Part shown: positions 14,259 to 32,698 of the stretch, piece after piece
How the letters are laid out: every line of letters starts with the position of its first letter
Position numbering within the stretch: position 1 is the first letter of the stretch
Origin: Desulfobacteraceae bacterium
GTDB lineage: Bacteria; Desulfobacterota; Desulfobacteria; Desulfobacterales; Desulfosalsimonadaceae
Assembly: GCA_027353395.1 (NCBI GenBank)
Contig: DAIEHU010000001.1
Coordinates: 1 to 33,217 of the forward strand
Reading direction: 5' to 3'
Length of the DNA stretch: 33,217 nucleotides
Program-made: the position numbers and the translations under genes
The notes under the pieces: generated by a model
The model's database searches: none
Told to the model about the DNA's origin: nothing
The model's input: the letters and a program-made list of their open reading frames with translations, nothing else

Positions 14259-15299
14259 TTAAAGAAACATCGATTTATCAATGGCTTTTTCATAAGCCGC
14301 TTCCTTCGTGATGGTATTCTCTTTAATCAGTTGAAATAAATGACTGTCCATACTCTGCATGCCTGCGGCGGTTCCGGTCTGGAGAATGGACCCGATCTGG
14401 GAAATCTTTCCCTCCCGGATCATGCTGGCAAGGGCTGTTGAGCCGATGAGGATCTCATTGGCGGCGCATCGGCCGCCGTTTTGGGTCTTGATGAGTTGCT
14501 GAGCGATAACGGCCCGGAGGGATTCGGAAAGCATGGTGCGGGTCTGGGCCTGCTGGTCCGCCGGGAAAGCGTTGATGATGCGATCAATGGTTTTCGCGGC
14601 TGAATTGGTATGCAGTGTCCCGAATACAAGAATGCCCAGCTCTGCGCAGGTCAGCGCAAGGGCAATCGTTTCCAGATCCCGCATTTCACCCACAAGAATG
14701 ATATCCGGATTTTCACGACTGGCGACTTTTAACGCCTCGCCGAAACTCTTTGCATGATTGCCGATCTCCCGATGGGTGATAAGACATTTTTTATTCTGGT
14801 GGACGAATTCCAGCGGGTCTTCAATGGTGATAATATGCCCGTCACGAGTATCATTAATATGATTAATGATGGCTGCCAGCGTGGTGGATTTTCCGCTGCC
14901 GGTAGGCCCCGTCACCAGGACTAAACCTCTTGTGTATTCAGCGATGGATTTGAGAACTTCCGGGAGATGCAGCTGTTCCAGAGTCAGAATCTCCGTGGGA
15001 ATCAGACGGAACACTGCGCCGATGCCCCGATGCTGATACAGATAATTGCACCGGAATCTGCCGACATTTTCCAGTTCATAGGCCATGTCAAAATCATGGG
15101 TTTTTTCAACGCTGTCCTGTTGTTCCGGGTTCAAAATTTCAAAAAGAATCTGTTTATTTGAGTCGGCTGTAAGGACAGGATGGTCAAGAGCGGTCAACTC
15201 GCCGCTTTTACGTATCAACGGCGGGAAACCGACGACCATGTGCAGATCGCTGGCGCCCCGCTCCTTCATTTCTTTGAAATATGCATCCAGCAGTTTCAT
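14259..15299 (-). CDS. pilT: Type IV pilus retraction ATPase PilT
   Basis: The 346-aa ORF has Walker A GPTGSGKST, ITIEDPLEF, ILVGEMRDLETI, GTLHTNSAAKTIDRI and MIREGK. Confidence 0.9.
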   Translation of the reverse strand: MKLLDAYFKEMKERGASDLHMVVGFPPLIRKSGELTALDHPVLTADSNKQILFEILNPEQQDSVEKTHDFDMAYELENVGRFRCNYLYQHRGIGAVFRLIPTEILTLEQLHLPEVLKSIAEYTRGLVLVTGPTGSGKSTTLAAIINHINDTRDGHIITIEDPLEFVHQNKKCLITHREIGNHAKSFGEALKVASRENPDIILVGEMRDLETIALALTCAELGILVFGTLHTNSAAKTIDRIINAFPADQQAQTRTMLSESLRAVIAQQLIKTQNGGRCAANEILIGSTALASMIREGKISQIGSILQTGTAAGMQSMDSHLFQLIKENTITKEAAYEKAIDKSMFL

Positions 15300-15322: not shown

Positions 15323-16387
15323 TCAGGCGGTTTTATTTAAAAACGGTTTAAACGTGTCTGGTTTGCTGGCATTGGCGGCTGCATCCGCCGCCGTTATGCG
15401 GCCGGCTTTCAGGAGCGTCATCAGGGATTCATCCATGAGCTGCATGCCGGCTTTTTTGCCGGTCTGCATCATGGATGGAATCTGAAATGTTTTGGCGTCC
15501 CGGATCAGGTTGGCCATCGGCAGTGTGCCGATTAAAATTTCAAGGGCCAGGACCATTTGTGAGCTGTCCGCCGCCGGAACCAGTCTTTGGGTAATCACGG
15601 CTTTTATGGCTTCGCTGAGCATGGTGCGTATCTGATTCTGTTCTTTGGGCGGAAAAGAGTCGATAATCCGCTCTACGGTTTTGGGTGCGCTGGAGGTAGA
15701 CAAGGTGCCGATCACAAGATGTCCGGTTTCGGCTGCTGTGATAGCCAGGGACATGGTTTCCAGATCCCGCAACTCTCCGATCATGATCACATCCGGGTCT
15801 TGTCGAAGAGCGCCTCTTAATGCATTGGCATAGGTCAACGTATCCAACCCGATCTGTCGCTGGTTTACCACGCCGCGCTTGAACGGATGCACAAATTCAA
15901 TGGGATCCTCCACCGTCAGGATATGATGTGACCGGTTGGTGTTTATATAGTCGACCATGGCGGCAAGCGTGGTGGATTTGCCATGCCCGGTTGCGCCTGT
16001 AACCAGTATCAGCCCCTGATGGTTGTCCAGCACCCGTTTGATGATATCCGGCATTCCCAGATCATCCAGCGCCGGGATTTTTGGCGGGATCACGCGAAAA
16101 ACAGCGCTTAATCCTCGTTGATGCTCCATGGCGCTTCCGCGGAATCGCCCGATCTCGGGAAGTTCGTAGCTGAAATCCAGTTGAAGGGTGTTTTCAAGAA
16201 TTTTCTTTTGCGGTTCGCTTAATATTTCAAGGATCAATTCCTGGCACTGACTCAGGCTGAGAGGGGCGTTTTTTAATTTTTTCAGTCTCCCCAGATGCCG
16301 GATGGTGATGGGTTCGTTCGGAACGATATGAACATCCGACGCCTTTAAGTCAACCGCCGCCTTGAATACTTTATCTAATTTCGCCAT
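15323..16387 (-). CDS. PilT/PilU-family ATPase (second paralogue)
   Basis: The 354-aa ORF has Walker A GATGHGKST (His where Ser is usual), LTVEDPIEF, IMIGELRDLETM, GTLSTSSAPKTVERI and NLIRDAK. Confidence 0.85.
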   Translation of the reverse strand: MAKLDKVFKAAVDLKASDVHIVPNEPITIRHLGRLKKLKNAPLSLSQCQELILEILSEPQKKILENTLQLDFSYELPEIGRFRGSAMEHQRGLSAVFRVIPPKIPALDDLGMPDIIKRVLDNHQGLILVTGATGHGKSTTLAAMVDYINTNRSHHILTVEDPIEFVHPFKRGVVNQRQIGLDTLTYANALRGALRQDPDVIMIGELRDLETMSLAITAAETGHLVIGTLSTSSAPKTVERIIDSFPPKEQNQIRTMLSEAIKAVITQRLVPAADSSQMVLALEILIGTLPMANLIRDAKTFQIPSMMQTGKKAGMQLMDESLMTLLKAGRITAADAAANASKPDTFKPFLNKTA

Positions 16388-17035: not shown

Positions 17036-18178
17036 ATGGATTTCGCATTCACCAAAGAACAATTGATGTTCAAAAAAGAGATTATCCGGTTCGCCAAAAA
17101 AGAGATTGTCCCTCGTATTCAGGAACATGATTTAAAAAAGCAGTTTGATTTTGAATCGTTTAAAAAGCTTGGAGAGTTCGGCATCCTTGGTTTGCATTTT
17201 CCCGAAGAATATGGCGGGAGCGGGGCGGATGTCATCACCACCGTAATGGCCGGCGAGGCATTGGGAGAAGCGGGTGTTGACGGGGGTCTGACGTTGGCCT
17301 ACGGCGCTCACACCTTCCTGTGTGCGGACACCATTTTTTCTCATGGCACCGAGGCCCAGCGGAAAAAATACATCCCCAAGCTGGCCAGCGGCGAATGGAT
17401 CGGATGCATGGGCCTGACCGAACCGAATGCCGGCTCGGATGTCGCCTCCATGACTACCACCGCTGAAAAAAAAGACGGCAAATACGTCTTAAACGGCAGC
17501 AAAATATTTATCACCAACGGACCCATCGCCGATGTCGCCGTGATTTACGCAAAAACCGATCCGTCGCAAAAACATACCGGAATTTCAGCCTTTATCGTTG
17601 AAAAAGGGACTCCTGGATTCGCATCCGGCCCCAACCTGATTAAAATGGGCGTCAGCACTTCCCAGACGTCCGAACTCTTTCTGAACAACTGTGAAATTCC
17701 GGCGGAAAATATGCTTGGCCGTGAAGGCGAAGGATTTAACATGTCTCTTCAAACTGTGGAATGGGATCGAAGCGCCCTGCTCGCTCCTTTTGTGGGCGCG
17801 TCCACCTACATGCTGAACCGGTGCGTGGAATACGCCAGCAGCCGGGAACAGTTCGGCAGGAAAATCGGCCAGTTCCAGGCCATCAAACAAAAAATCGCCA
17901 ATATCCGCATTTTCGGCGAGGCGGCCCGCAACCTCGTCTACCGGATCGCATGGTGCAAGAATCAGGGACGGCCCATGAATCACCTGGAAGCTGCTGTAGC
18001 CAAACTTTTTGTCGGCGACTGGAGTCTGGCCCCGGCCAATGACGCGGTTGTTCTTTTCGGCGGCTACGGCTACTGCCACGAGTATGATATGGAGCGGATT
18101 TTCAGAGACAGTCGGCTGGCCCCCATTGGCGGCGGCACATCCGATATTCAGAAAATGATTATCTCCAAACTGATGTAA
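17036..18178 (+). CDS. Acyl-CoA dehydrogenase
   Basis: The 380-aa ORF has the ACAD signature GLTEPNAGSDVAS, FITNGPIADV, FGGYGYCHEYDMERIFRD and IGGGTSDIQ. AGGAG (17025-17029) precedes the ATG. Confidence 0.9.
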   Translation: MDFAFTKEQLMFKKEIIRFAKKEIVPRIQEHDLKKQFDFESFKKLGEFGILGLHFPEEYGGSGADVITTVMAGEALGEAGVDGGLTLAYGAHTFLCADTIFSHGTEAQRKKYIPKLASGEWIGCMGLTEPNAGSDVASMTTTAEKKDGKYVLNGSKIFITNGPIADVAVIYAKTDPSQKHTGISAFIVEKGTPGFASGPNLIKMGVSTSQTSELFLNNCEIPAENMLGREGEGFNMSLQTVEWDRSALLAPFVGASTYMLNRCVEYASSREQFGRKIGQFQAIKQKIANIRIFGEAARNLVYRIAWCKNQGRPMNHLEAAVAKLFVGDWSLAPANDAVVLFGGYGYCHEYDMERIFRDSRLAPIGGGTSDIQKMIISKLM

Positions 18179-18222: not shown

Positions 18223-19359
18223 ATGAATTATGACTTCAGCGATAAAGAATTTAATCTTTTTGTGGAAATACATACGTTGATGGGGACATTCGCGAAAGAG
18301 AACGATTTGGAGACCAAGGATGCGGAAAAATCGGAGAAAAACACCCGACGGGCCCTGGCGCTCCTTTCCAGAACCCCTTATTTAACATTGGGTATCGAAA
18401 AAGCAGATAATTATAATGGTCTGCTCACGCTCATGGGCGGCATGGAAACTATCGCTGCGGCTTCGCCGTCTCTGTTTTTATCCATCGAAACCAGCACCCG
18501 GATTTTTGGACGGATTTTAAGCGCCTGGGGCAGCGCCTCCCAAAAGGAAAAACTGCTGCCGGCCCTGTTGAACGGTCAGATCATCGGTGCGGTTGGCTTA
18601 TCGGAAGACGCCATGAACGTGGACAATGATCCCCTGATGACCACGGCGGTGATGGACGGGGACAGCGCAATCATTTCCGGACACAAACAGTATGTGGTGA
18701 ACGGCCCCGTTGCGGACTGGTTAGCTGTCGCGGGAAGGCTGGACGGGAAAAACGCCATTTTTCTGGTTGAAAAAGGGACGCAAGGGCTCTCCATTGGTGG
18801 AAAAGCCGCTACCTTGGGCTATGAAGGCGTTGCCATTTCCAATCTGATGTTCGAAAACTGCGCTATTGCATCAAGCCAGGTGATCTTTCCCGAAAATGAC
18901 AAAACGATGTTAACCACGCTAAAGCTATGGGAAAACCAGATTCTTATCGGAGCGAGCCTGGGGCTCATGAAAAGGGCATTTGAGTCGGCAAAAGTATATG
19001 CCAAAAAACACAAAACCGGAGGAAAGCCGATCATCGCCTATCAGGAAGTCGGGTTCAAATTGGCTCAAATGCTGACCCTGTTTCAGGCTTCTCAATTATT
19101 TGCTTACAAGGTCGCGTGGGCGGCGGATGCCGAACCGAAGGACATTGAATCATTAACTCTTTGCGCCAAGGTGTTCTGTACGGAAGCCGCCGAGCAGGTG
19201 GCCGGCGACGCCATGAAAATTCTCGGCGGTTCGGGATTTTTATCCGGAAACCCTGTGGAAGAAGCATTCCGCTGCGCCAAGTATGGGCAGATCGCTGGAA
19301 CTTCCACTGAAATTTCGCGGGTCAAAATCGGCGACAGCGCCTTGGGTTTGATGAAATAG
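18223..19359 (+). CDS. Acyl-CoA dehydrogenase-fold protein with degenerate signature motifs; possible non-FAD partner subunit
   Basis: At 378 aa it has ACAD length and layout (VVNGPVADW, ILGGSGF, IAGTSTEI). The signature-1 block reads GLSEDAMNVDNDP instead of [ST]E..[GA]G[ST]D, and signature 2 is also off consensus. Confidence 0.8.
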   Translation: MNYDFSDKEFNLFVEIHTLMGTFAKENDLETKDAEKSEKNTRRALALLSRTPYLTLGIEKADNYNGLLTLMGGMETIAAASPSLFLSIETSTRIFGRILSAWGSASQKEKLLPALLNGQIIGAVGLSEDAMNVDNDPLMTTAVMDGDSAIISGHKQYVVNGPVADWLAVAGRLDGKNAIFLVEKGTQGLSIGGKAATLGYEGVAISNLMFENCAIASSQVIFPENDKTMLTTLKLWENQILIGASLGLMKRAFESAKVYAKKHKTGGKPIIAYQEVGFKLAQMLTLFQASQLFAYKVAWAADAEPKDIESLTLCAKVFCTEAAEQVAGDAMKILGGSGFLSGNPVEEAFRCAKYGQIAGTSTEISRVKIGDSALGLMK

Positions 19360-19377: not shown

Positions 19378-20052
19378 ATGCCTGCAAAAAAATTAATAAA
19401 AGAAGAAAATTTATCCAAATCCGCCCAGCGGCGGCAGCGGGAACGGGAGCATCGCTATCAGACCATTCTGACAGCGGCTGAAAAACTTTTCGCCACGGAA
19501 GGCTACCACAAATCCAGCATGGAGCAGATCGCCAATGCCTCTGAAGTGTCGGTGGGCGCAGTTTATTTTTATTTTAAAAACAAAGAGGATCTTATCATTC
19601 AGCTCTTGGATGAAATCGGATATGTACTTCGAAGCACGCTGGGCAATGCGTTTAAAAAACATGGTCCCACCATGGAAGGCTTCAAGCAGGCGGGGTATGC
19701 TTTTTTTGAAGACTTCTGCGTAAACTACCCGGAAAAATGCGCCATTATCTTCCGGGAATCGGTCGGCAACAGTCCCGAACTGGAGGGGCGCCGGAAAAAG
19801 CTCTTTGAAAAATGCACCGGCGACGTGCGCTCCGCCTTACTGTCGGTTTGCGAGAATCAAGGGCTGAAGTTTAAGGGGCAATATTCGGCTGAAGTGATCG
19901 CCGTCAGCATTATGGGGATTTACGAACGCGTTGCCTATCAATATTTGTTCTGGCAGGACGCCTCCAACGATATCCGTCTCATCGGCCGCGACGCTGTGGG
20001 TTTTATCACCGGCGGCGTCAACTATCTGCTCAATGAAATCTCATGCACTTAA
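19378..20052 (+). CDS. TetR/AcrR-family transcriptional regulator
   Basis: N-terminal HTH region: ILTAAEKLFATEGYHKSSMEQIANASEVSVGAVYFYFKNKEDL. Length is 224 aa. Confidence 0.9.
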   Translation: MPAKKLIKEENLSKSAQRRQREREHRYQTILTAAEKLFATEGYHKSSMEQIANASEVSVGAVYFYFKNKEDLIIQLLDEIGYVLRSTLGNAFKKHGPTMEGFKQAGYAFFEDFCVNYPEKCAIIFRESVGNSPELEGRRKKLFEKCTGDVRSALLSVCENQGLKFKGQYSAEVIAVSIMGIYERVAYQYLFWQDASNDIRLIGRDAVGFITGGVNYLLNEISCT

Positions 20053-20615
20053 AAGGCGCTTTGCATACCCATACGACCTGTTCCGACGGTGAACTGACCA
20101 TCGAAGAAGCCGTTCGGATATACACCGGACTGGGATTTGATTTTATCGCCCTCACGGACCATGACTACCTCATGCGGCCGGACTGCTACAGGTCGGTCGC
20201 AGCCCTGAAGACCGCTCTGATCATTTTTACCGGCGTGGAAATGACCGTTTTTGAAAAGGGGTACGTGCATGTCAACCGGATTGATGGGGACAAGGATGTT
20301 CTCCATGTTTTCAATCATCCCTCAGAACTCGATCTCCCCATGGAAAAAGCAATTGAAAGGATTTGCGCTGTCTCGGAAAAGTTTCCGCTGGATGCGGTGG
20401 AAGTGACTTCCAAGGGATTCCGTGCCCCCGAATTTGAAATTCCGCGAATCCCGTTGCCGAAAGTCGCCACGGATGATTCCCATACCCGGATCGGATGCGG
20501 AAGGGCATGGATTGAGATGGATTGCATGAGGGATAAAGACAAAATCATCCGGGCTATCCGGCACGGGGATTTTTGGAACTGTTACACGGAAACCCGTTAT
20601 TTGTTTATAAAATAA
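20043..20615 (+). CDS. Minimal PHP-domain metal-dependent phosphoesterase
   Basis: The 190-aa ORF has HTHTTCSDG, ALTDHD, GVEM, FNHP and TDDSH, which is the full PHP metal-ligand series. Its start overlaps the TetR stop by 10 nt. Confidence 0.7.
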   Translation: MHLKGALHTHTTCSDGELTIEEAVRIYTGLGFDFIALTDHDYLMRPDCYRSVAALKTALIIFTGVEMTVFEKGYVHVNRIDGDKDVLHVFNHPSELDLPMEKAIERICAVSEKFPLDAVEVTSKGFRAPEFEIPRIPLPKVATDDSHTRIGCGRAWIEMDCMRDKDKIIRAIRHGDFWNCYTETRYLFIK

Positions 20616-20652: not shown

Positions 20653-21813
20653 ATGGCGAAAAGAGTTGGTATTTGTGCGGTTGCGCAGACAACATATGAG
20701 CGCGACAAAAAAGACATCCGGTTTCAGGGCATGGCCCTGGAAGTTCTGGAAGCGCTCCGGAAACAGGTGGATGTCACATTTTCACGGCATGTGAAGGGCG
20801 CTAAAGGCGTCGATATGTCCATCAGCGTATCCGACGATATATTTGACGCCCGGACCATCTCGGACAATGCAATGACGGATGTCCTCGGCGCGCATTTCGG
20901 ATGCGAGGAAAAGGTCGCTCAGGAAGGGATTCAGGCATTGTATTACGCTTTGGCCGCAATCCAGTCCGGACACAACAATATGGTGCTGGTGATGGGCCAC
21001 TGCAAGGAGTCCCAGGCGCAAAGCCGGAACATGGTGACCCACATGGCCTTTGATCCCTTTTTTACCCGTCCCGTGGGAATTGATTTCTGCGCAGCGGCTG
21101 GTCTGCAGGCCCAGGCATACAGCGCCAAATCGCAAATCACGGATGAACATCTGGCGAAGATCGTCGTCCGCGCAAGGGAAAACGCATCCAAAAACCCATG
21201 TACGCAGGAAATCGGCAAAGTGTCCGCGGAAGAGGTCATGGCATCTCCGATGCTGGTCGATCCCATTCGCGAACTGCACGCCTATCCGGTTTCGGACGGG
21301 GCTGTGGGCATGATTCTCGCCACGGAAGATACCGCCAAAAAAATATGCAAAAATCCGGTCTGGATTACCGGCGTCGGCAACTGCATGGACAGTTTCTTTT
21401 TGGGCGACCGCGATTTGACTTCCAATTTCGCCCTGAAAAAGGCCGTGCAATATGCGTATAAACGAGCCGGTATCACAGATCCCCGGTCCGCCTTTGACGT
21501 CATTGAATTGTCCGACCAGTACGCCTATCAGCTTCCCATGTGGGCGGAAGGCATCGGTCTCTGCGATGCCGGGAAAGGCGCGAAATGGCTGGACGGCGGC
21601 GGGCCGGTTAAACAGAACGTCAATACGTCAGGCGGTATGCTGGCCGGCAACCCGCTGATCTTGGGCGGACTTGTCCGTGCGGCGGAGGCGGCCATTCAAC
21701 TGCGCGGCGAGGCCGGGGACCGTCAGATCAACAATGCAAAAACAGCCATCGCTCATGGCGTTATGGGGCCGGCAGGTCAATTTCATTCAGTCATCACATT
21801 GGCAAGGGCTTAG
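20653..21813 (+). CDS. Thiolase-fold protein A (SCP-x/Ltp-like) lacking the canonical catalytic residues
   Basis: Thiolase-fold blocks are present: YPVSDGAVGMILA, NTSGGMLAGNPLILGG and QLRGEAGDRQ. Ala occupies the nucleophile position (KVAQEG). ATG 20653 follows AAGGAGGG (20638-20645); the ORF-track start at 20635 is an alternative. Confidence 0.85.
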   Translation: MAKRVGICAVAQTTYERDKKDIRFQGMALEVLEALRKQVDVTFSRHVKGAKGVDMSISVSDDIFDARTISDNAMTDVLGAHFGCEEKVAQEGIQALYYALAAIQSGHNNMVLVMGHCKESQAQSRNMVTHMAFDPFFTRPVGIDFCAAAGLQAQAYSAKSQITDEHLAKIVVRARENASKNPCTQEIGKVSAEEVMASPMLVDPIRELHAYPVSDGAVGMILATEDTAKKICKNPVWITGVGNCMDSFFLGDRDLTSNFALKKAVQYAYKRAGITDPRSAFDVIELSDQYAYQLPMWAEGIGLCDAGKGAKWLDGGGPVKQNVNTSGGMLAGNPLILGGLVRAAEAAIQLRGEAGDRQINNAKTAIAHGVMGPAGQFHSVITLARA

Positions 21814-21823
21814 GAGGCGAACA

Positions 21824-23002
21824 ATGAAAAAAAATAGAAATGTCGGCATTATCGGAGTAGGCCAATCCGTTTTTTCAAGCCATCGGGAAGAGGTGAACCA
21901 GCCGGAAATGATTCATGAAGCGGTTCTCGAGGCATTACAACATGCGGGAATGACCATTGGGGATGTGGACTGCATCGTTCATGGTAATATGGAACTCTTT
22001 GAAATGATTCATCAGCCTGATCTTTGGCATACCCTGGGCACCGGCGCTTATGGCAAGGAAACCCTGCGGGTCACCACCGGCGGCACCACCGGGGCCACCC
22101 TATGCTGCACGGCGGATTATCTGGTCTCATCCGGGCTTCACGACGTGGTGCTGGCTATCGGTTTTGAAAAGCTCCAGGAAGGGCATACCACCGGCGGCAT
22201 CACCAACATGGCCGATGCGCTCTGGGCCAGACAGCTTCAGACCGGCGCCTTAACCGGTATGACAGCCGCCCAGGTCATCGAAGAATTTGGCGAAGAACGG
22301 GCGAAAAAAGCCGCCATGAAATACAGAATTATCATGGACAAACATGCCATGAAAAATAAAAAAGCCCACCGCCGTCTGGGCCTTGAATTTGACCAGGCGG
22401 ATGACCTGATGGTCAATTCTCCGGCCCTGGTGGGTGAACTTCGCATGATTCATATGTGTTCCCAGTCTGATGGCGCCTGCGCCATGATTTTCGCCTCCGA
22501 GGAAAAAGCCAAACAGTTCTGCAAGCAGCCTGCATGGATCAAGGACCATATTACAGTCCACCGGGAAGAAAGCTTCTGCCTTTTCGGCGACGCGCCCGTT
22601 GTCTATTCTCACCGGTATGCTGCTGAAAAATTGTTTGAACGCAACGGTATCAAGAATCCGCGCAAAGAAATCGATATGTTTGAAATGTATGACCCGTCTT
22701 CCTGGTGGGGGCTTGACTGGCTCCGGCAGTTTCTGCTGTTTGAAGGGGATGAACATCTCAAAATGGTGGAAAATGACGATATCACCATTGACGGCAGCTT
22801 TCCGGTGAATCCATCCGGCGGCGTCACGGCATCGAATCCCATCGGGGCCACGGCCATGGTAAGGGTGGCGGAAGCGGCTCTTCAAATTATGGGGGACGCG
22901 GGCGATCATCAGGTCAAAAAGACCGTTAACCAAGCCTTGGCATCGGGATTCGGCGGGACCATGTGGACGGTTCTGTTCCTGCTGACCCGGAACGTCCCAT
23001 AG
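21824..23002 (+). CDS. Thiolase-fold protein B (SCP-x/Ltp-like) lacking the canonical catalytic residues
   Basis: AIGFEKLQEG, CSQSDGACAMIFASEE and NPSGGVTASNPIGATAMV are present, with Gly at the nucleophile position (TTGGTTGA). ATG 21824 follows AGGAGG (21812-21817). The ORF-track start at 21671 overlaps gene A and is rejected. Confidence 0.85.
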   Translation: MKKNRNVGIIGVGQSVFSSHREEVNQPEMIHEAVLEALQHAGMTIGDVDCIVHGNMELFEMIHQPDLWHTLGTGAYGKETLRVTTGGTTGATLCCTADYLVSSGLHDVVLAIGFEKLQEGHTTGGITNMADALWARQLQTGALTGMTAAQVIEEFGEERAKKAAMKYRIIMDKHAMKNKKAHRRLGLEFDQADDLMVNSPALVGELRMIHMCSQSDGACAMIFASEEKAKQFCKQPAWIKDHITVHREESFCLFGDAPVVYSHRYAAEKLFERNGIKNPRKEIDMFEMYDPSSWWGLDWLRQFLLFEGDEHLKMVENDDITIDGSFPVNPSGGVTASNPIGATAMVRVAEAALQIMGDAGDHQVKKTVNQALASGFGGTMWTVLFLLTRNVP

Positions 23003-23111: not shown

Positions 23112-25457
23112 ATGAACTTAGGCAAATACATCGATGATGCCGTCAAAAAATACAGGGATCTTCCATATATGCAGTTTTATGACCGCACCATTACATACGG
23201 CGATTTTAGCAAAAAAATTAACGCCCTGGCCAATGCACTGAAAAAACAAGGATTTAAAAAAGGTGATTTTATCCACGTATGGGTGCAGAACAGCCCGGAA
23301 ACCCTGATCGCCTATTATGCCATTATCAAAATCGGCGCTGTGGCCGGCCCCATCAACGGGTGGTGGAAAGCGCCGGAAGTGGAATACCTGTTAAACGATT
23401 CCAAAGGCTGTGGTCTTATTGTTGAAGATCAATACCTTTCCATTTACAACGAGATTAAGGATAAATGCCCGAACTTAAAAAAAATCATCGAGGTCAGCGA
23501 AAAACCGGCCGACGGGCATATTTCTTTTGCCGCACTGCTGGCGGAAGGGGACAACACACCCTTTGAGAGCGACGCGGACCCCGAAGATATTGCCTTTATC
23601 TTCTATACGTCCGGCACCACGGGAAACCCCAAGGGCGTTTTGCTTTCCAATAAGAATGTGGTGGCCGACGCCAACGGGATCAATGCGGCCCTGAATACGG
23701 ATGAAAATCGGAATTTCCTCTGCTTTCTGCCCCTGTTTCACGTCAACGCAATGCTCACCTGCACATCCGCCCTGGAAAAAGGCCATCAGATTATTCTGCG
23801 GAAACAGTTTTCCGCCAGCGAATTCTGGGAAGTGGTGGAAAAATATAAAGTGAATTTTTGGTCCGCGGTTCCGGCAGTCTATCAGATTCTGCTCTCCGAC
23901 CCTACCCGCCAGAAATTTGATTTGAGCTCCCTTGAATTCGGCATCTGCGGTGCCGCCCCCCTGACCCAGGAAACCATGACCAACTTCCAGGACACATTTG
24001 GCATTCCCATCGTCGAAGGATATGGCCTTACGGAAGGCACTTGTGTCAGCACCATCAATCCGATGAATGGTGTCCGCAAGATCGGTTCCATCGGCCTGGC
24101 CCTGCCCGGCCAGGAAGTTCTGATTGTTGATGAACACGGAAATGAGGTTCCCACTGGGGAACGCGGTGAGATCGTCATCAAGGGCGATAATGTCATGAAG
24201 GGATATTACAACAAGCCCGAGGAAACCGCCAAAACCATTATAGGTGGCTACCTGCATACCGGAGACGTGGGCGTCAAGGACGCGGACGGCTATATTTTCA
24301 TTGTGGACCGGATGAAGGACATGATCATCCGGGGCGGGGAAAATATCTATCCCAAGGAAATCGACAATCTCCTGGCAGGCCACCCCAAAATTAGCGAGGC
24401 CGCAACCGTAGGCGTTCCGGACAAGACCATGGGGGAAGAAGTCAAAGTATTTGTGGTGGCGGAAGACGATTCCCTGACCGAAGAAGAAGTCATTGAATAC
24501 TGCAAACAAAACCTCGCCTCATTTAAAGTCCCGAAATATGTTGAAATCCTTAGCGAGGATTTTCCTCGAAGCCCCATCGGCAAAGTACTGAAAAAGACAC
24601 TTCGGGAGTGGGGGCTGAAAGGCTCGCCCACCAAGCCCAAGGGGCCGGAAGTCACGGTGAATGATATTTTCGGCACCATGGAATCGCGGGTCAATCCGGA
24701 TGGCGTTAAAGGCATAACCGCCAACTACGGGTATATTATTACCGGCACGGGCGGCGGCGAGTATACCGTGTGCGTGTCTGACGGCAGGGTCCAGGTCAAG
24801 GAAGGCATCCACAGCCCCAACGTCACCACCACCTGCTCGGCCAAGGACTGGATCGCCATCACTCTGGGCAAGCTTGATGGCATGACCGCCTTTACCTCCG
24901 GAAAACTGAAAGTCGAGGGCGATATGGGTCTGCTGGGTAAAGCCACCAAATTCTTTAAAAAATACACGCCCCCTGCCGGCGGTGACCCGGTGGAAAAAGG
25001 CGAAGAGCTTATCGTCAAAAAACAGATTCTATCCATCCCCCAAAAATTTTCCACCGGTCCGGTCATGGGCAAATTCTTAAATGCGTTTAAAGATAAAAAA
25101 ATACTGGCGAACCGGTGCCCGAAATGCGGCCGTCTCCAGCTCCCCCCGAGAGAAGTATGCGCCGAATGCGTGGTCCGTGCTGCCGACTGGGTGGAAGTCG
25201 GCCCGGATGGCGTGATCTCCATCATGGATGTCACCTTCTATGCCAGTCCGGATCCACTGACCGGAGAGAGCCGGGAAACGCCTTATGTTTCCGCCCACTT
25301 CCTGCTGGATGGGTGCAAAGGCCATGAAACCCTCTGGCATGAATTAAAGCCCGAGGACAGGGATCGCGCAAAAAAAGGAGACCGGGTCAGGCCGGTATGG
25401 AATGAAAACCGAATCGGCGCCATCACGGATATTTTATACTTTGAACTCATCGATTGA
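23112..25457 (+). CDS. Tri-domain fusion of an AMP-forming acyl-CoA synthetase, an SCP2 lipid-binding domain and a DUF35 Zn-ribbon/OB-fold domain
   Basis: Residues 1 to about 500 have YTSGTTGNPKGV (nt 23604-23639), GYGLTEG and GDVGVKDADGYIFIVDRMKDMIIRGGENIYPKEID. Residues about 512-618 have WIAITLGKLDGMTAFTSGKLKVEGDMGLLGKATKFF, an SCP2 pattern. Residues about 640-781 have CPKCGRLQLPPREVCAEC plus an OB-fold tail. Confidence 0.85.
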   Translation: MNLGKYIDDAVKKYRDLPYMQFYDRTITYGDFSKKINALANALKKQGFKKGDFIHVWVQNSPETLIAYYAIIKIGAVAGPINGWWKAPEVEYLLNDSKGCGLIVEDQYLSIYNEIKDKCPNLKKIIEVSEKPADGHISFAALLAEGDNTPFESDADPEDIAFIFYTSGTTGNPKGVLLSNKNVVADANGINAALNTDENRNFLCFLPLFHVNAMLTCTSALEKGHQIILRKQFSASEFWEVVEKYKVNFWSAVPAVYQILLSDPTRQKFDLSSLEFGICGAAPLTQETMTNFQDTFGIPIVEGYGLTEGTCVSTINPMNGVRKIGSIGLALPGQEVLIVDEHGNEVPTGERGEIVIKGDNVMKGYYNKPEETAKTIIGGYLHTGDVGVKDADGYIFIVDRMKDMIIRGGENIYPKEIDNLLAGHPKISEAATVGVPDKTMGEEVKVFVVAEDDSLTEEEVIEYCKQNLASFKVPKYVEILSEDFPRSPIGKVLKKTLREWGLKGSPTKPKGPEVTVNDIFGTMESRVNPDGVKGITANYGYIITGTGGGEYTVCVSDGRVQVKEGIHSPNVTTTCSAKDWIAITLGKLDGMTAFTSGKLKVEGDMGLLGKATKFFKKYTPPAGGDPVEKGEELIVKKQILSIPQKFSTGPVMGKFLNAFKDKKILANRCPKCGRLQLPPREVCAECVVRAADWVEVGPDGVISIMDVTFYASPDPLTGESRETPYVSAHFLLDGCKGHETLWHELKPEDRDRAKKGDRVRPVWNENRIGAITDILYFELID

Positions 25458-25478: not shown

Positions 25479-26378
25479 ATGAGCACAGCAACAAATGATT
25501 GTTTTATCGTCAATGGGAAGCTGGCCCTTCCCTATCAATACTTTGCCGGCCGAGCCGGAAGCCGGTTTATCATCAGCCTGCGGGATGAAAAAAAAATCAG
25601 GGGCTTAAAATGTCAGAAGTGCGGCAAAGTGTTTGTTCCGCCACGGGCTACCTGTGAAACCTGCTTTGAAGACATATGCGAGAACTGGGTGGATGTGAAA
25701 AATACGGGCGTTGTCACCTGTTTTACCATCATCCGCTATAAAGAGCCCCATCAGCCGGTTGACCCGCCCTATATTCTGGGGCTTGTCAAACTGGACGGCG
25801 CGGACACCCCGCTCGCCCACATCGTCAAAGGCGTACCTTTGAGCAAGATGAAAACCGGCCTCAAGGTCAAGGCGGTGTTCGCCAAAAAAACCACCGGCGG
25901 CATTATGGATATTGATCATTTCCAGGTAGTTGATGACAAACCTAAATTTGAAATGGGCTATTCCTATGATGAACTGGAGATCGGCATGTCCGCATCGTTT
26001 ACCAAAACGATTTCAGAGACCGATGTCTACCTGTTCGCGGGGATTTCCGGGGATTTCAACCCCATGCATATGAACGAAGAATTCGCCAAGATGACGCCTT
26101 TCGGCACCCGTATCGCTCATGGGGCTCTGCCCCAAAGTCTTATAGCGCCGGTTCTCGGCATGAAACTTCCGGGCCTGGGCACGGTCATTCCGGAAATCAC
26201 CGTCCGGTTCAAACGGCCCACCTATTTTGGCGACACCATCACCGCCATCGGCGAGGTCGTCGAAAAAATAGAAAAAAAACGATGGGTCCGCATGGAGCTC
26301 CGCTGGACCAATCAAAAAGATGAACTGGTGGCGGAGGGGTCTTGCCTGGCCATACCGCCGATGCCATTCAATAAATAA
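25479..26378 (+). CDS. DUF35 (Zn-ribbon/OB-fold) fused to a MaoC-like (R)-specific enoyl-CoA hydratase
   Basis: Residues 1 to about 150 have KCQKCGKVFVPPRATCETC plus an OB-fold. Residues about 160-299 carry the hot-dog hydratase-2 motif FAGISGDFNPMHMNEEFA (nt 26034-26087) and IAHGAL. Confidence 0.85.
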   Translation: MSTATNDCFIVNGKLALPYQYFAGRAGSRFIISLRDEKKIRGLKCQKCGKVFVPPRATCETCFEDICENWVDVKNTGVVTCFTIIRYKEPHQPVDPPYILGLVKLDGADTPLAHIVKGVPLSKMKTGLKVKAVFAKKTTGGIMDIDHFQVVDDKPKFEMGYSYDELEIGMSASFTKTISETDVYLFAGISGDFNPMHMNEEFAKMTPFGTRIAHGALPQSLIAPVLGMKLPGLGTVIPEITVRFKRPTYFGDTITAIGEVVEKIEKKRWVRMELRWTNQKDELVAEGSCLAIPPMPFNK

Positions 26379-26390
26379 GGATAAAATTGC

Positions 26391-27554
26391 ATGACATACG
26401 AATTCAAAACCGAATCCACCTATCAGGAATATTTCACCAAATCCCATGATCTGGTCAGAAAATCCGTCCGGGAATTTATTAAAAAAGAAGTGCTGCCGTT
26501 TATCAACGAATGGGAGGAAGCCGGGGAGTTCCCGAAAGAAATATACAAAAAAGCCGGGGATGTGGGAATCTTAGGTATTGGGTTTCCCGAAAAATTTGGT
26601 GGCACGCCGGGAGATATCTTTTTTGGGGTGGCGGCCAGCGAGGAACTCATGCGGTCCACTTCTGGCGGTTTTTGCGCAGGGCTGGGCTCCTTAAATATCG
26701 CGTTGCCCCCGATTTTAAACCTGGGTTCAGAGGAACTGAAACAAAAATTCATCCCGCCCGTGCTGGCCGGAGATAAAATCGCGGCCCTGGCCATCACTGA
26801 ACCCGGCGGGGGATCGGATGTGGCGAATATCAAAACAACGGCAGTGAAAGACGGCGGCCATTATATTATCAACGGCAGCAAGACGTTTATCACCAGCGGC
26901 TGCCGGGCCGACCAGGTCACCTGTGCGGTCCGCACCGGCGGGGAAGGCGCAAAGGGCATCAGCATGATCGTTGTGGAAAAAGGAACGCCGGGCTTTTCCG
27001 TCTCCAAAAAACTGAAAAAAACCGGCTGGTGGGCATCCGACACGGCCGAGCTCTTTTTCGACAATTGCCGCGTGCCGGCGGCAAACCTGATCGGCGAGGA
27101 AAACCAGGGATTCTACGCCATCGTGATCAATTTCCAGCAGGAACGGCTGGCGCTGGCGGTTATGGCCAACATGACGGCCCGCATGGCCCTTGAAGAAGCC
27201 ATCAAATATGCGAAGCAACGGGAAGCCTTCGGCAAACCCCTGACCGGTTTTCAGGTGACCCGGCACAAGCTGGCGGACATGGCGACACTGGTGGAGGCCA
27301 GTACGGAATTCACCTACCGGGTGGCGGCCAAAATCGGCGCGGGCGTCGACCAGATCAAGGAAGTGTCCATGGCCAAGAATTTTGCCTGTTCTGTCAGCGA
27401 CAAGGTCACTTTTGACGCGGTCCAGATTTTCGGCGGGTATGGCTATATGCGGGAATACGTGGTGGAGCGCCTGTACCGGGACAACCGGATCCTTTCCATC
27501 GGCGGCGGAACAACGGAAATCATGAAAGAAATCATATCCAAAATGATGATGTGA
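26391..27554 (+). CDS. Acyl-CoA dehydrogenase
   Basis: The 387-aa ORF has AITEPGGGSDVAN, FITSG, QIFGGYGYMREYVVERLYRD and IGGGTTEI. Confidence 0.9.
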   Translation: MTYEFKTESTYQEYFTKSHDLVRKSVREFIKKEVLPFINEWEEAGEFPKEIYKKAGDVGILGIGFPEKFGGTPGDIFFGVAASEELMRSTSGGFCAGLGSLNIALPPILNLGSEELKQKFIPPVLAGDKIAALAITEPGGGSDVANIKTTAVKDGGHYIINGSKTFITSGCRADQVTCAVRTGGEGAKGISMIVVEKGTPGFSVSKKLKKTGWWASDTAELFFDNCRVPAANLIGEENQGFYAIVINFQQERLALAVMANMTARMALEEAIKYAKQREAFGKPLTGFQVTRHKLADMATLVEASTEFTYRVAAKIGAGVDQIKEVSMAKNFACSVSDKVTFDAVQIFGGYGYMREYVVERLYRDNRILSIGGGTTEIMKEIISKMMM

Positions 27555-27655: not shown

Positions 27656-29458
27656 ATGATGGAAAAAACAATCACTGAAGTTTTCAAAAATCGCTCCCAA
27701 AAATATAAGAACCGGCTGGCCGCCGAGAAGAAAAAAAGCGGCAAATGGGAAAAGATGACCTGGAGCGAATATTATGATCGCGCCCGATTTCTCGGCATCG
27801 GTCTCTATTCTCTGGGAATCAAAAAAGGGGACATGGTTGCCATCCTGTCTGAAAACTGTCTGGAATGGATTGTCACCGACATGGGGGCTCTGGGTATTGG
27901 CGCCGTGGTGGTGCCGGTTTATACGACGCTGGTCGCCGAAGAAGTCAAATATATTGTTGAAAATTCAGAATCCAAGGTCATTTTTGTTGAAAATAAAATG
28001 CAGCTCGACAAGATCCTCTCTTTTGTTGATGAAGTGAAGTCTCTGGAAAAAATCGTGGTTTTCAATAACAGGGACGCCAAAAACAGCCATCCGGAAGTCA
28101 TCAGCTTTGAGGAACTCCTTGCCTCCGGAAAAGACGGCATTGAAAAACCGGCCTTGTTTGAGACCCTTGCCGCTGAAGTCGCCCCGGAAGACCTGGCCAC
28201 CATTGTTTACACTTCCGGCACCACCGGCGTTCCCAAAGGGGCCATGATCACCCATAAAAACATCATGGCGGTCATCCGTTCGCTGGACAGCATCATCCCC
28301 AAATTCGCCTATGATACGGACCAGACCGTGCCGCTGCTGCCGCTCAGCCATGTATTCGAGCGCGTGGCCGGCCATTTTTACGGCATGTACGTGGGGCTCA
28401 CGGCTTCCTACGCCGAAAGCATCGACACCTTTGTGGTGGATGTCAAGGAAAAGCGCCCGACGGTGGTTCTGGCGGTTCCCAGGGTTTGTGAAAAAGTCTA
28501 CCAACGGATTCTCGGCCAGGTGGAGGAACAGCCCGAGTGGAAGCAAAAAATGTTCCACTGGGGATACAATGTGGGCCTTGAGATCAGCGCGTTGCGGGAA
28601 AAGAAAAAGCCGATTCCGCTGTTCCTTGGGCTTCAATACAAGCTGGCCTATAATCTGATCTTTAAAAAACTGGCGGATGCATTGGGGGGAAGGGTCCGGT
28701 GGATGACTGCATCCGGCGCGCCCACGTCCCGGGATATCATCCTGTTTTTCAATGCCTCCGGCATCACCGTCATTGAAGGATACGGCATGACGGAATCCTG
28801 CGCCCCGGCCACCATGAGCAGTCTTTCGGATTATAAAATAGGGACGGTCGGGAAACCGCTGCCAGGTGTTGATATCAAAATCGCCGAAGATGGCGAAATT
28901 CTGGTCAAGGGCGATAATGTATTCGCCGGATACTGGAAAATGGAAAAAGAAACGAAAAACGCCTTCACGGATGACGGGTATTTGATGAGCGGGGATATCG
29001 GGAAATTCGACGAAGATGGATTTCTGCTGATCACGGACCGGAAAAAAGATCTGATCATTACTTCCGGCGGGAAAAATGTCGCACCCCAGAAAATTGAGGG
29101 AATTTTCAAATTCGATCCCCTGTTCGCCCAGTTTATTGTGGTGGGGGAACGGAAAAAATTCTTGAGCGCGCTGATCAATATTAACCTGGAACAGGCCCAG
29201 CGGCTTGCCGCACAGCAGGGCGTCGCATTCGATAAACCACAGGACTTGCTGGACAACAAGGCGTTTCTGAAAATCGTGGATGAGCATGTTGCGGAGAAAA
29301 ATCAAAAACTGGCCCGGTATGAAACCATCAAAAAATACCGGATTATTCGCGATGAATTTTCTCAGGAAGGCGGAGAATTGACCCCGTCGCTGAAGATGAA
29401 GCGCAATGTGATTTATAAAAAATACGACGGCCTCATTGATACGATGTATGAGGGTTGA
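27656..29458 (+). CDS. Long-chain-type AMP-forming acyl-CoA synthetase (FACL/FadD-like, 600 aa)
   Basis: IVYTSGTTGVPKGAMITHKN, EGYGMTE, GDIGKFDEDGFLLITDRKKDLIITSGGKNVAPQKIE, and a C-terminal LTPSLKMKR. Confidence 0.9.
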   Translation: MMEKTITEVFKNRSQKYKNRLAAEKKKSGKWEKMTWSEYYDRARFLGIGLYSLGIKKGDMVAILSENCLEWIVTDMGALGIGAVVVPVYTTLVAEEVKYIVENSESKVIFVENKMQLDKILSFVDEVKSLEKIVVFNNRDAKNSHPEVISFEELLASGKDGIEKPALFETLAAEVAPEDLATIVYTSGTTGVPKGAMITHKNIMAVIRSLDSIIPKFAYDTDQTVPLLPLSHVFERVAGHFYGMYVGLTASYAESIDTFVVDVKEKRPTVVLAVPRVCEKVYQRILGQVEEQPEWKQKMFHWGYNVGLEISALREKKKPIPLFLGLQYKLAYNLIFKKLADALGGRVRWMTASGAPTSRDIILFFNASGITVIEGYGMTESCAPATMSSLSDYKIGTVGKPLPGVDIKIAEDGEILVKGDNVFAGYWKMEKETKNAFTDDGYLMSGDIGKFDEDGFLLITDRKKDLIITSGGKNVAPQKIEGIFKFDPLFAQFIVVGERKKFLSALININLEQAQRLAAQQGVAFDKPQDLLDNKAFLKIVDEHVAEKNQKLARYETIKKYRIIRDEFSQEGGELTPSLKMKRNVIYKKYDGLIDTMYEG

Positions 29459-29475: not shown

Positions 29476-30630
29476 ATGAGCGGTAGAGTCGCCGTCTGCG
29501 CCGTGGCGCAGATCAAGAACGAACCGGATATCTGGTATCAGAGATTCCAGGGGATGCTCTTTGAGTGTTTTGAATCCATCATCAAGCAAACCGGGGTGAC
29601 CTTCGACATGGAAAAGGGCATCCGGAACATCATCACCTGCTCCGATGACGTGTTTGACGCCCGCACCATTTCCGACAACGGCGTGACGGACGCGGTGGGC
29701 GCGCATTTCCGGGGCGAGGAAAAGGCCGCCCAGGATGGCATCAACGGCTTGGGATATGCCATGGCATCCATTCTGTCCGGTCACGATGATCTGGTGCTCT
29801 TGATGGGGCACTGCAAGGAATCCCAGTCGGAAAGCCGGAATATGTGCAGCAATCTGGCATTCGATCCGTTTTTCTGCCGGCCCCTGGGACTGGATTTCTT
29901 AAATGCCGCCGCTTTTCAGGCCCGGGCCTATATGAATAAATCCGGAGTCACGGATGCGCATCTGGCAAAAATTGTCTCCCGTTCCCGCAAGCTTGCGGCT
30001 AAAAATCCATATGCCAGAGAAAACGATCCCATCACGGAACAGAATGTTTTAGAATCACCGCTCCTGGCCGATCCCATCCGGCAACTGCACCAGTACCCGG
30101 TCACTGACTGGGCGGTGGGAATGCTCCTGTGCTGCGAGGATCGCGCCCGTGAGTTTACGGACAACCCGGTATTTCTCACCGGATTCGGAAGCTGCATGGA
30201 CAGTTATTTTCTGGGGGACAGAGACCTGGCGTCCAATTTCGCCCTAAAAAAAGCCGCGCAACGGGCTTACCGCATGGCCGGAATTTCAGATCCCAAAAAA
30301 GAGTTTGATATTGCGGAATTAAATGACGCCATTGCCTATCAATTGCCCATGTGGGCGGAAGGTCTGGGACTTGCCGATGAAAATCAGGGGGGCGAATGGG
30401 TTGCATCCGGAGCGTTGGATGCCCAGCACGTCAACCTTTCCGGGGGCATGCTAAACGGCAATCCGATTATGCTGGGGGGGCTTGCCCGGGCAACGGAAGC
30501 CATTTTACAGCTCAGGGGCGAAGCCGGCGACCGGCAGGCGGAAGGTGCTGCAAAAGCCGTGGCCCACGGAACCACAGGCCCGGCCGGGCAGCACCATGCG
30601 GTGATTATTCTTGAGAGGCAGGGGGTATGA
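29476..30630 (+). CDS. Thiolase-fold protein A', paralogue of 20653..21813
   Basis: It shares DDVFDARTISDN, GAHFRGEEKAAQDGI, MGHCKESQ, AYQLPMWAEGLGL, SGGMLNGNPIMLGG and QLRGEAGDRQ with A. ATG 29476 follows AGGAGGG. The ORF-track start at 29455 is a TTG that overlaps the ligase stop. Confidence 0.85.
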   Translation: MSGRVAVCAVAQIKNEPDIWYQRFQGMLFECFESIIKQTGVTFDMEKGIRNIITCSDDVFDARTISDNGVTDAVGAHFRGEEKAAQDGINGLGYAMASILSGHDDLVLLMGHCKESQSESRNMCSNLAFDPFFCRPLGLDFLNAAAFQARAYMNKSGVTDAHLAKIVSRSRKLAAKNPYARENDPITEQNVLESPLLADPIRQLHQYPVTDWAVGMLLCCEDRAREFTDNPVFLTGFGSCMDSYFLGDRDLASNFALKKAAQRAYRMAGISDPKKEFDIAELNDAIAYQLPMWAEGLGLADENQGGEWVASGALDAQHVNLSGGMLNGNPIMLGGLARATEAILQLRGEAGDRQAEGAAKAVAHGTTGPAGQHHAVIILERQGV

Positions 30631-32687: not shown

Positions 32688-32698
32688 GGAGTCCGGTC

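Follow-up and report, generated by a model that had tools for sequence, protein, structure and literature searches.

The window considered here, a stretch of 33,217 nucleotides from a Desulfobacteraceae bacterium (contig DAIEHU010000001.1 of assembly GCA_027353395.1), carries an operon built around two adjacent genes, which we call A and B, whose products have the fold of thiolases but in which all four thiolase catalytic residues (Cys, His, Cys, His) are replaced. The explanation that we favour, and to which we give a probability of roughly one half, is that A and B form the heteromeric retro-aldolase core of an aldolytic variant of β-oxidation. A paralogous pair, A' and B', is encoded in a second module of the same operon, and the four genes are as follows.

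20653 to 21813, forward strand: A, a thiolase-fold protein of 386 residues with a degenerate active site, from an Ltp4-like family; putative non-catalytic partner.
21824 to 23002, forward strand: B, a thiolase-fold protein of 392 residues, from an Ltp3-like family; predicted catalytic retro-aldolase subunit.
29476 to 30630, forward strand: A', paralogue of A, 59 % identity.
30627 to 31829, forward strand: B', paralogue of B, 70 % identity.

Both genes of the first pair are preceded by a recognisable ribosome-binding site, AAGGAGG lying 8 nt 5' of the start of A and GGAGG lying 5' of the ATG of B at 21824. A mechanically generated list of open reading frames begins B at a TTG at 21671, but we rejected this start as too early because the ribosome-binding site fronts the ATG at 21824 and the orthologues of B all start with MKKNRNVG. 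In the second pair the stop codon of A' overlaps the start codon of B' (ATGA).

Residue equivalences were established from HMMER alignments to solved thiolases and from MAFFT alignments. Aligned with the zebrafish SCP2-thiolase (6HSJ), B has TTG-G-TTG in place of NNN-C-STG, so that the nucleophilic Cys becomes Gly87, while the HDCF motif corresponds to Tyr289-Asp-Pro291-Ser and the GHP motif to Ser-Asn338-Pro. Aligned with the archaeal thiolase 6ESQ, A has KV-A-QEG in place of AA-C-ASG, which puts Ala89 in the nucleophile column, with Ser287-Asp-Gln-Tyr at HDCF and Gly-Asn333-Pro at GHA. When MAFFT is run with 108 representatives of the A family it places a three-residue gap at the nucleophile instead (KVA, gap, QEG against AACASGS), and in neither the HMMER nor the MAFFT alignment does a Cys stand at the nucleophile position of A or B. 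The original prediction, made from the letters of this DNA alone, had anchored both proteins without gaps on the thiolase block of human SCPx and had read from this a Gly for the nucleophile in B, an Ala in A, the loss of HDCF (SDQY in A, YDPS in B) and an exchange of His for Asn in both; the anchoring is reproduced by the alignments to solved structures, and the residues and their coordinates stand as it gave them. The codons concerned are these.

22082 to 22084, forward strand: Gly87 codon of B (GGC), nucleophile column.
20917 to 20919, forward strand: Ala89 codon of A (GCT), nucleophile column in the HMMER alignment.
22688 to 22696, forward strand: Tyr289-Asp290-Pro291 codons of B, YDP in the HDC columns, with Tyr289 as the proposed base.
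22835 to 22837, forward strand: Asn338 codon of B, column of the GHP His.
20998 to 21003, forward strand: His116-Cys117 codons of A, in the GHCKES loop, a conserved pair specific to the clade.

The second module repeats the pattern, as had also been noticed beforehand: A' has Ala, Asn-Asp-Ala and Gly-Asn-Pro in the catalytic columns, and B' has Gly, YDPS and Ala-Asn-Pro. Cys84 of A, which lies near the nucleophile position, is Gly in A'. Of the features that define SCP2/SCPx thiolases, A and B therefore possess the fold, and both lack the nucleophilic Cys, the HDCF motif and the His of GHP; in functional terms the pair does not belong with the SCP2-thiolases.

Purifying selection acts strongly on both genes. 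Measured against eight orthologues, the ratio of non-synonymous to synonymous change (dN/dS) is 0.04-0.07 for B and 0.05-0.13 for A, from proportions of non-synonymous differences (pN) of 0.05-0.20 and of synonymous differences (pS) of 0.52-0.74, the latter near saturation. B is constrained about twice as much as A. With ratios as low as these the replacements are neither chance nor decay, which bears out the view that they are selected variants and not the marks of pseudogenes.

The two proteins are not conserved in the same manner. For B the comparison drew on 103 B-type sequences out of 80 genome loci, seven of them being paralogues or actinobacterial proteins at 35-41 % identity, and across this set Gly87, Tyr289, Pro291 and Asn338 are invariant, as are Glu60, Thr85, Glu119, Cys212, Cys219, Trp238 and Arg347. 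The invariance that had been proposed for the Tyr of EMYDPS thus extends to 103 of 103 sequences. The A family was assembled by searching 1.8 billion cluster representatives (clustered at 50 % identity) with A, of which 189 matched at E ≤ 1e-30, and 108 full-length representatives were aligned. Of these 108, 94 have a nucleophile loop shortened by three residues; the column of the first His is most often occupied by Ser (39), Tyr (15), Asp (10), Cys (8) or His (8), and that of the second by Asn (48), Asp (15), Tyr (12) or His (10). The Cys of MGHCKESQ, which had been put forward as a further invariant feature, turns out to mark a clade only: this residue, Cys117, is found in 84 of 97 close relatives of A and in 15 of the 108 wider representatives, and its neighbour His116 in 94 of 97 and 34 of 108, respectively. 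The GHCKES loop that contains them corresponds to GFEK(M/L) of thiolases and of B. Set side by side, the fixed new residue set of B and the variable columns and loop deletion of A indicate unlike roles: B has the look of a catalyst, whereas A seems degenerate and is probably a non-catalytic partner. A decarboxylase role for Gln90 of A, on the pattern of the ketosynthase and chain-length factor (KS-CLF), was considered and rejected, since this residue varies across the wider A family.

The assignment of both proteins to the thiolase fold is secure. Pfam Thiolase_C_1 matches A at 1e-22 and B at 3e-21, and the best NCBIfam matches of both all carry the names 'thiolase domain-containing' or 'lipid-transfer protein', although all lie far under the curated cut-offs. 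The fold hallmarks SDGA, N-x-SGG and QLRGEAGDRQ, already recognised in the original prediction, are present. For A the assignment comes from sequence, the best PDB match being 4yzo at 1e-28. For B an AlphaFold2 model was available (predicted local distance difference test 77, predicted template-modelling score 0.84), and a Foldseek search with it matched SCP2-type thiolases, the archaeal thiolase, BbsB, PhlC, Ltp2 and Sal to much the same degree, with template-modelling (TM) scores of 0.74-0.83 (6HSP, 6ESQ, 7PXP, 5M3K and 6OK1) and of 0.74-0.76 for the steroid aldolases Ltp2 and Sal. The search with this model confirms the fold only and does not separate aldolases from thiolases; judged by the fold of its model, B belongs to the branch within the thiolase superfamily that has DUF35 proteins as partners. 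Public databases name the Cys-free orthologues of B 'acetyl-CoA C-acetyltransferase', 'propanoyl-CoA acyltransferase' or 'thiolase family protein', names that are probably wrong.

What points B towards aldol cleavage is its likeness to the steroid aldolases. In TcLtp2 the catalytic base is Tyr294 of the motif Y294DHF, in CtSal it is Tyr302 of Y302DCY, and both motifs have been equated with HDCF of the SCP2-thiolases (PMC12329534). CtSal furthermore has a Gly, Gly89, at the position of the thiolase nucleophile, and its backbone amide is proposed to bind the hydroxyl group of the substrate (PMC12329534). Tyr289 and Gly87 of B stand in the columns of the aldolase base Tyr and of Gly89 of CtSal, respectively. 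The base Tyr is found in B only, since A and A' have Ser and Asn there, so that the analogy with Ltp2 drawn by the original prediction holds for B and fails for A, whose site is degenerate. Asn338 of B shares the column of the GHP His with Gln352 of CtSal (Gln376 in the numbering of 9MYR), and the Gly-Gly near the C-terminus that forms the oxyanion hole of CtSal (Gly391) is kept in B as Gly377-Gly378.

In the mechanism that we propose, A and B would assemble as a heterodimer of thiolase-fold paralogues and would act as a retro-aldolase, not as a thiolase. Tyr289 of B would take a proton from the 3-hydroxyl group of a 3-hydroxyacyl-CoA, this hydroxyl being held by the Gly87 backbone NH, in the role that has been suggested for Gly89 of CtSal. 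Cleavage of the C2-C3 bond would follow, with the thioester enolate stabilised by Asn338 and the backbone of Gly377-Gly378 of B, and an acid would protonate C2 to give acetyl-CoA (or propionyl-CoA) and an aldehyde or ketone. The proton might come from Glu119, Cys219 or Glu60 in B or, in trans, from His116/Cys117 in A. A would have a structural part and would probably give the acyl pocket its shape where the two subunits meet, a role comparable to that of the chain-length factor in type II polyketide synthases or of the inactive ChsH1-ChsH2 subunits. Each protomer would bind one DUF35 domain, of which one carries an SCP2 lipid-binding domain (and, in module 1, a CoA ligase) and the other carries, in module 1, a PhaJ-like (R)-hydratase.

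The remaining genes of the operon are listed below; ACAD stands for acyl-CoA dehydrogenase.

17036 to 18178, forward strand: ACAD1, an acyl-CoA dehydrogenase that opens the conserved operon; PDB matches to Bcd- and IVD-type ACADs at 4e-99.
18223 to 19359, forward strand: ACAD2, acyl-CoA dehydrogenase-like, perhaps a partner subunit of ACAD1; Pfam Acyl-CoA_dh_1, _M and _N.
19378 to 20052, forward strand: TetR-family regulator with weak NCBIfam matches to FasR and to Bacillus FadR; in the same place in most Desulfobacterales loci.
20043 to 20615, forward strand: PHP-domain protein of 190 residues; Pfam PF02811, no NCBIfam family.
23112 to 25457, forward strand: AMP-forming acyl-CoA ligase-SCP2-DUF35 fusion; Pfam AMP-binding, AMP-binding_C, SCP2 and zf-ChsH2, with OB_ChsH2_C in the C-terminal fragment.
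25479 to 26378, forward strand: fusion of an N-terminal DUF35 domain to a C-terminal MaoC (R)-specific enoyl-CoA hydratase, from Pfam.
26391 to 27554, forward strand: ACAD3, acyl-CoA dehydrogenase with NCBIfam ACAD matches; position conserved.
27656 to 29458, forward strand: second acyl-CoA ligase, FadD11-like (NCBIfam 385 bits, below cut-off); conserved between the two A/B modules.
31839 to 32687, forward strand: SCP2-DUF35 protein of module 2; Pfam SCP2 and zf-ChsH2, 45 % identity with the C-terminal region of the ligase fusion.
32684 to 33160, forward strand: stand-alone DUF35 protein of module 2; Pfam zf-ChsH2 and OB_ChsH2_C, 56 % identity with the DUF35 portion of the MaoC fusion.

Both modules encode thiolase-fold proteins that lack the nucleophilic Cys and come with DUF35 partners, as the pair had been described at the outset. 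The ligase fusion matches the NCBIfam long-chain-fatty-acid--CoA ligase PRK06187 with 492 bits, above the cut-off. The DUF35-MaoC fusion, encoded 2.5 kb downstream of the A/B pair, is conserved, and its hydratase part is PhaJ-like (5cpg at 1.6e-26) with the GDxNPxH motif intact as GDFNPMH. The two DUF35 genes of module 2 overlap by ATGA. The PHP protein matches PHP phosphoesterases and enzymes of the RNase AM type in the PDB at 1e-5, over its first 80 residues only.

The conserved order of these genes is ACAD1, ACAD2, TetR, PHP, A, B, the CoA ligase-SCP2-DUF35 fusion, the DUF35-MaoC fusion and ACAD3, to which many genomes then add the FadD11-like ligase, A', B', the SCP2-DUF35 protein, the DUF35 protein and one or more crotonases. 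It is kept in more than 60 loci of Desulfobacterales and Spirochaetota. Across genera of Desulfobacterales B itself keeps 80-95 % identity, in over 100 database clusters or species representatives, its relatives including proteins of Desulfosarcina alkanivorans PL12, Desulfosarcina widdelii PP31 and a metagenome-assembled genome (MAG) of Desulfosudis oleivorans, and is about 70 % identical in MAGs of Leptospirales and other Spirochaetota. An A-type gene ends no more than 400 nt 5' of the B-type gene in 98 of 106 cases, with five more at contig ends, and at least two open reading frames containing DUF35 lie 3' of the B-type gene in 58 of 61. The PHP gene stands directly 5' of an A-type gene in 62 cases, Spirochaetota included, and in the Desulfobacterales and Spirochaetota loci the A-type gene that it precedes is the first of the operon. 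The order of A, then B, with DUF35 is also found on unrelated metagenome contigs whose proteins are 31-40 % identical to A.

Further divergent triads of A, B and DUF35, at only 35-41 % identity to the A/B pair described here, occur in the same Desulfobacterales genomes (L031 574-4133 on the reverse strand, L052 14734-17704, L062 and L073). From these extra triads the family appears to have radiated within genomes, in the way of catabolic enzyme families with different substrates. In MAGs of Spirochaetota and Leptospirales (L072 12392-13816, 16608-18402 and 18320-21182; also L076 and L081) a fusion of DUF35 to a beta-keto-acid cleavage enzyme (BKACE) is followed by genes for a crotonase, a FadD11-like ligase and two CoA-transferase subunits and by a second, distant DUF35-A-B triad.

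The acyl-CoA dehydrogenases differ in how well they are kept, ACAD1 being 72-93 % and ACAD2 37-78 % identical across loci, a gap that recalls the heteromeric steroid ACADs with one degenerate subunit. ACAD1 has Gly at the position of the catalytic Glu of MCAD, and all three ACADs of the operon have Gly or Ala at this site (IGGGTSD, IAGTSTE and IGGGTTE). Elsewhere in the window, and judged from translations, two adjacent paralogous genes for PilT-like ATPases (14259-15299 and 15323-16387, reverse strand) are situated just upstream of the operon, their products having GPTGSGKST and GATGHGKST as Walker A motifs, and a pair of adjacent Cys-rich proteins with CxxC-type motifs (4216-5034 and 4970-5611, reverse strand) is adjoined by a 550-residue protein resembling the FMN domain of glutamate synthase (2121-3773, reverse strand).

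With its ligases, acyl-CoA dehydrogenases and hydratases the operon would support an aldolytic route. Such a route would lead from a carboxylic acid through the acyl-CoA and the 2-enoyl-CoA to the (3R)-hydroxyacyl-CoA, and from there to a carbonyl compound and acetyl-CoA, bypassing the dehydrogenase and thiolysis steps. Among the unassigned open reading frames of at least 150 residues in the operon there is no candidate for a 3-hydroxyacyl-CoA dehydrogenase or a true thiolase, and in D. alkanivorans a canonical thiolase is encoded outside the operon on the other strand. In steroid pathways aldolytic cleavage is followed by re-esterification, and the presence of two ligases for two A/B modules fits this pattern: an aldehyde product, if one is formed, would undergo oxidation elsewhere, after which the second ligase would activate it again for the A'/B' module.

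Likely substrates would be lipophilic acids whose β-carbon cannot pass through the 3-oxo stage, such as β-branched acids. These, which would give a tertiary alcohol, are, we infer, more plausible than ordinary fatty acids, because an AMP-forming ligation in each round would be costly for a sulfate reducer. A specifically steroid substrate was considered and set aside, as the MaoC domain is PhaJ-like, the ligases are of the fatty-acid type and no genes for steroid rings lie nearby. A more ambitious and distinctly tentative version of the proposal, which we think improbable in its full form, is that the operon encodes an undescribed aldolytic β-oxidation by which strict anaerobes degrade acids with a blocked β-carbon, for example 3-methyl-branched isoprenoid or phytol-derived acids and sterol- or hopanoid-like side chains, without oxygen or carboxylation, and that its heterodimeric aldolase has a new kind of site in which Tyr289 and Asn338 of B might be joined by a proton donor supplied in trans, possibly His116-Cys117 of A. 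A literature search returned nothing on the A/B operon in Desulfobacterales or on DUF35 in sulfate reducers, and a proteogenomics paper on Desulfobacteraceae does not mention the operon.

Several observations weigh against an aldolase. Neither of the known general acids is present in B, Cys304 of CtSal being replaced by Pro291 and Tyr344 of TcLtp2 by Asn338, the latter equivalence being deduced from the spacing of +50 from Tyr294 and from the alignment with CtSal. Near the putative site, several loops of B (residues 118-140, 200-213 and 334-337) are modelled by AlphaFold2 with low confidence. That A and B form a heteromer we infer only from gene order, namely the adjacency in 98 of 106 cases, the ATGA overlap and the 2:2 ratio of DUF35 domains to thiolase-like proteins. 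The operon has no aldehyde dehydrogenase, and its MaoC domain is an ordinary PhaJ-like hydratase and not one of the steroid type. In Spirochaetota the second DUF35 domain is fused to BKACE (PF05853, 321 bits) and not to MaoC, and this spirochaetal DUF35-BKACE fusion is left unexplained by a simple scheme of hydratase and aldolase. The NCBIfam models PRK08313 and PRK07937, which, judging by the lengths of the M. tuberculosis genes and by their NCBI name of 'lipid-transfer protein', probably represent Ltp3 and Ltp4, are also matched well below their cut-offs: PRK08313, the best NCBIfam match of B, scores 274 bits with B and 265 with B' against a cut-off of 514, and PRK07937 scores 165 with A and 163 with A' against 419.

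The alternative that survives best, although we consider it unlikely, is that A and B are a catalytically dead scaffold, which would assemble the DUF35-tagged enzymes (ligase-SCP2, MaoC and BKACE) and bind acyl-CoA without transforming it. Such a docking hub would fit the fusion of DUF35 to three enzyme types in different lineages, the loss of every canonical residue from both subunits and the lack of an identifiable proton donor in B. However, in the literature on the DUF35 complexes of thiolase/HMGCS, Ltp2, Sal, BbsAB and PhlABC the thiolase-fold core is treated as the catalyst, and the active-site columns of B, invariant down to 35 % identity and matching the base Tyr of the aldolases, would be needless in a pure scaffold. 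The operon would moreover be left without any enzyme that cleaves C-C bonds.

A little less probable again is a different reaction of CoA esters, which might be an aldol reaction in the synthetic direction, with acetyl-CoA adding to an aldehyde or ketone, a decarboxylation, or a Claisen-type reaction carried out with BKACE and the CoA transferase. Aldolases are reversible, the YDCF protein TbSLP is a weak malonyl-CoA decarboxylase, and the spirochaetal clusters combine the DUF35-BKACE fusion with CoA-transferase genes. Decarboxylating members of the thiolase superfamily, on the other hand, depend on a pair of His residues, both of which are absent from B, and the Desulfobacterales operon is made of catabolic parts, with ligases, ACADs, hydratases and a FadR/FasR-like TetR regulator.

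The idea that A or B is still a thiolase and uses another Cys, such as Cys212 or Cys219 of B or Cys117 of A, is effectively excluded. Cys212 and Cys219 are indeed invariant in the B family and Cys117 is conserved in close orthologues of A, but the zebrafish SCP2-thiolase has a Cys in the column of Cys212 in addition to that of its nucleophile column, both His residues and the acid/base Cys required for thiolysis are missing, and Cys117 is found in only 15 of the 108 A-family representatives. Decaying thiolase duplicates, whether pseudogenes or neutral relics, might equally have lost all catalytic residues, but this least probable reading is refuted by intact reading frames with ribosome-binding sites, by dN/dS of 0.04-0.13 with synonymous sites near saturation, and by the conservation of B at 80-95 % identity in more than 100 clusters or species representatives and of gene order in more than 60 loci.

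In Desulfobacterales, environmentally important sulfate reducers that live in marine sediments and oxidise their substrates completely, the operon ranks with the better conserved of the catabolic clusters, and the probably wrong names given to proteins of the A/B type distort metabolic reconstructions. Its occurrence in the cultured D. alkanivorans PL12 and D. widdelii PP31 makes the proposal testable, and the fixed traits of the system (an invariant B, a degenerate A and two DUF35 domains per pair) offer targets for mutagenesis and co-purification. The model proposed for A/B would bear on the function of Ltp3-Ltp4 as well, a type known from genetics since 2012 and here seen to belong to a much larger family.

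Several known systems share part of this architecture. The acyltransferases PhlABC and MucABC (5M3K and 9VBO) combine two different thiolase-superfamily subunits with DUF35, one of the two being termed inactive, as we propose for A/B; unlike A and B, however, PhlC keeps its catalytic Cys (9SKM being its C88S variant), and the chemistry is acyl transfer and not aldol cleavage. PhlA is described as the inactive member, and is presumably FabH-like and not a paralogue of the SCP2-thiolases. In the archaeal thiolase and in BbsB, which are among the best sequence and fold matches of A and B, DUF35 docks on a thiolase-fold dimer, but the alignments show Cys, His, Cys and His all retained in the archaeal enzyme (6ESQ), and BbsB is a characterised thiolase. 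The KS/CLF of type II polyketide synthases is a heterodimer of an active thiolase-fold subunit and a Cys-free paralogue that shapes the substrate tunnel; it differs from A/B in its branch of the superfamily, in its substrates, which are bound to acyl carrier protein, and in its condensation chemistry. Among Cys-free proteins, ST0096 of Sulfolobus tokodaii (4YZO, 'thiolase-like protein') has Ser at the nucleophile (DNTSGSGG) but, unlike A and B, keeps both His residues, while TbSLP (5AB4) likewise lacks the nucleophilic Cys and has YDCF, but retains the second Cys. Both were crystallised alone and neither has an established function; ST0096 is perhaps another Cys-free member of the same branch with no assigned function.

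Closer in chemistry are the steroid aldolases. B shares with TcLtp2 (6OK1) and CtSal (9MYR) the SCP2-thiolase fold, the lack of a Cys nucleophile, the Tyr in the HDCF-His column and a DUF35 partner, and the existence of CtSal means that Ltp2 is not, as had been supposed, the only characterised case. In Shy the N-terminal domain is DUF35 and the C-terminal domain MaoC, and the DUF35 domain docks on the aldolase Sal (PMC11321319); the DUF35-MaoC protein of the operon has the same domain order. Unlike the proposed A/B core, the Ltp2 and Sal aldolases are homodimers with a pair of identical DUF35 domains at the flanks of each, and the sequence similarity of B to them is weak (5.6e-7 to 6ok1 and 2.3e-10 to 9myr). 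The A/B pair agrees only in part with an Ltp2/Sal-type aldolase.

The nearest relatives in organisation are Ltp3 and Ltp4. Ltp3-Ltp4 has been termed a 'heteromeric aldol-lyase' in a review, on genetic evidence only, and, according to papers that cite Wilbrink 2012, the degradation of C24-branched sterol side chains requires each of ltp3 and ltp4. In M. tuberculosis, Ltp3 and Ltp4 are strongly induced by cholesterol and have been termed putative SCP-2 aldolases. A biochemical or structural study of Ltp3-Ltp4 was not found in the searchable literature.

For comparison we used a trio located by tblastn of plasmids in Streptomyces clavuligerus, consisting of a 339-residue OB-fold protein, a 354-residue member of PRK07937 (550 bits) and a 388-residue member of PRK08313 (713 bits); the OB-fold protein (plasmid pF1D10B, L002 5916-6935) has two DUF35 OB domains in tandem and is encoded upstream of the Ltp4/Ltp3-type pair. 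In the Ltp3-type protein the nucleophile is replaced by Gly and the other motifs read Y-V-P-F and S-A-N-P; B has the same signature of G, Y-x-P and (A,S)NP. The Ltp4-type protein has a short nucleophile loop, as does A, whose gene moreover lies directly 5' of an Ltp3-type gene with DUF35 nearby, but keeps both His residues (ELHAPF and AAHPL) where A has SDQY and GNP. Common to the two systems are adjacent thiolase-fold paralogues beside DUF35 and two DUF35 domains per pair. Identity between A/B and the Ltp3/Ltp4 type is nevertheless only 27-35 %, and unlike the latter the A/B system has DUF35 partners fused to ligase, SCP2 and MaoC (to BKACE in spirochaetes), a PHP-domain gene directly 5' of the first A-type gene, and hosts that are strictly anaerobic Desulfobacterales with no steroid gene context. 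The original prediction did not recognise a two-subunit version as described; since Ltp3-Ltp4 already stands in the review as a heteromeric aldol-lyase, and B and A share the Ltp3- and Ltp4-type signatures, a two-subunit, Cys-free, DUF35-associated thiolase-fold aldolase is an existing hypothesis and not a new one. The A/B pair is best classed with Ltp3/Ltp4, as a distant and novel variant of this type of heteromeric thiolase-fold aldolase.

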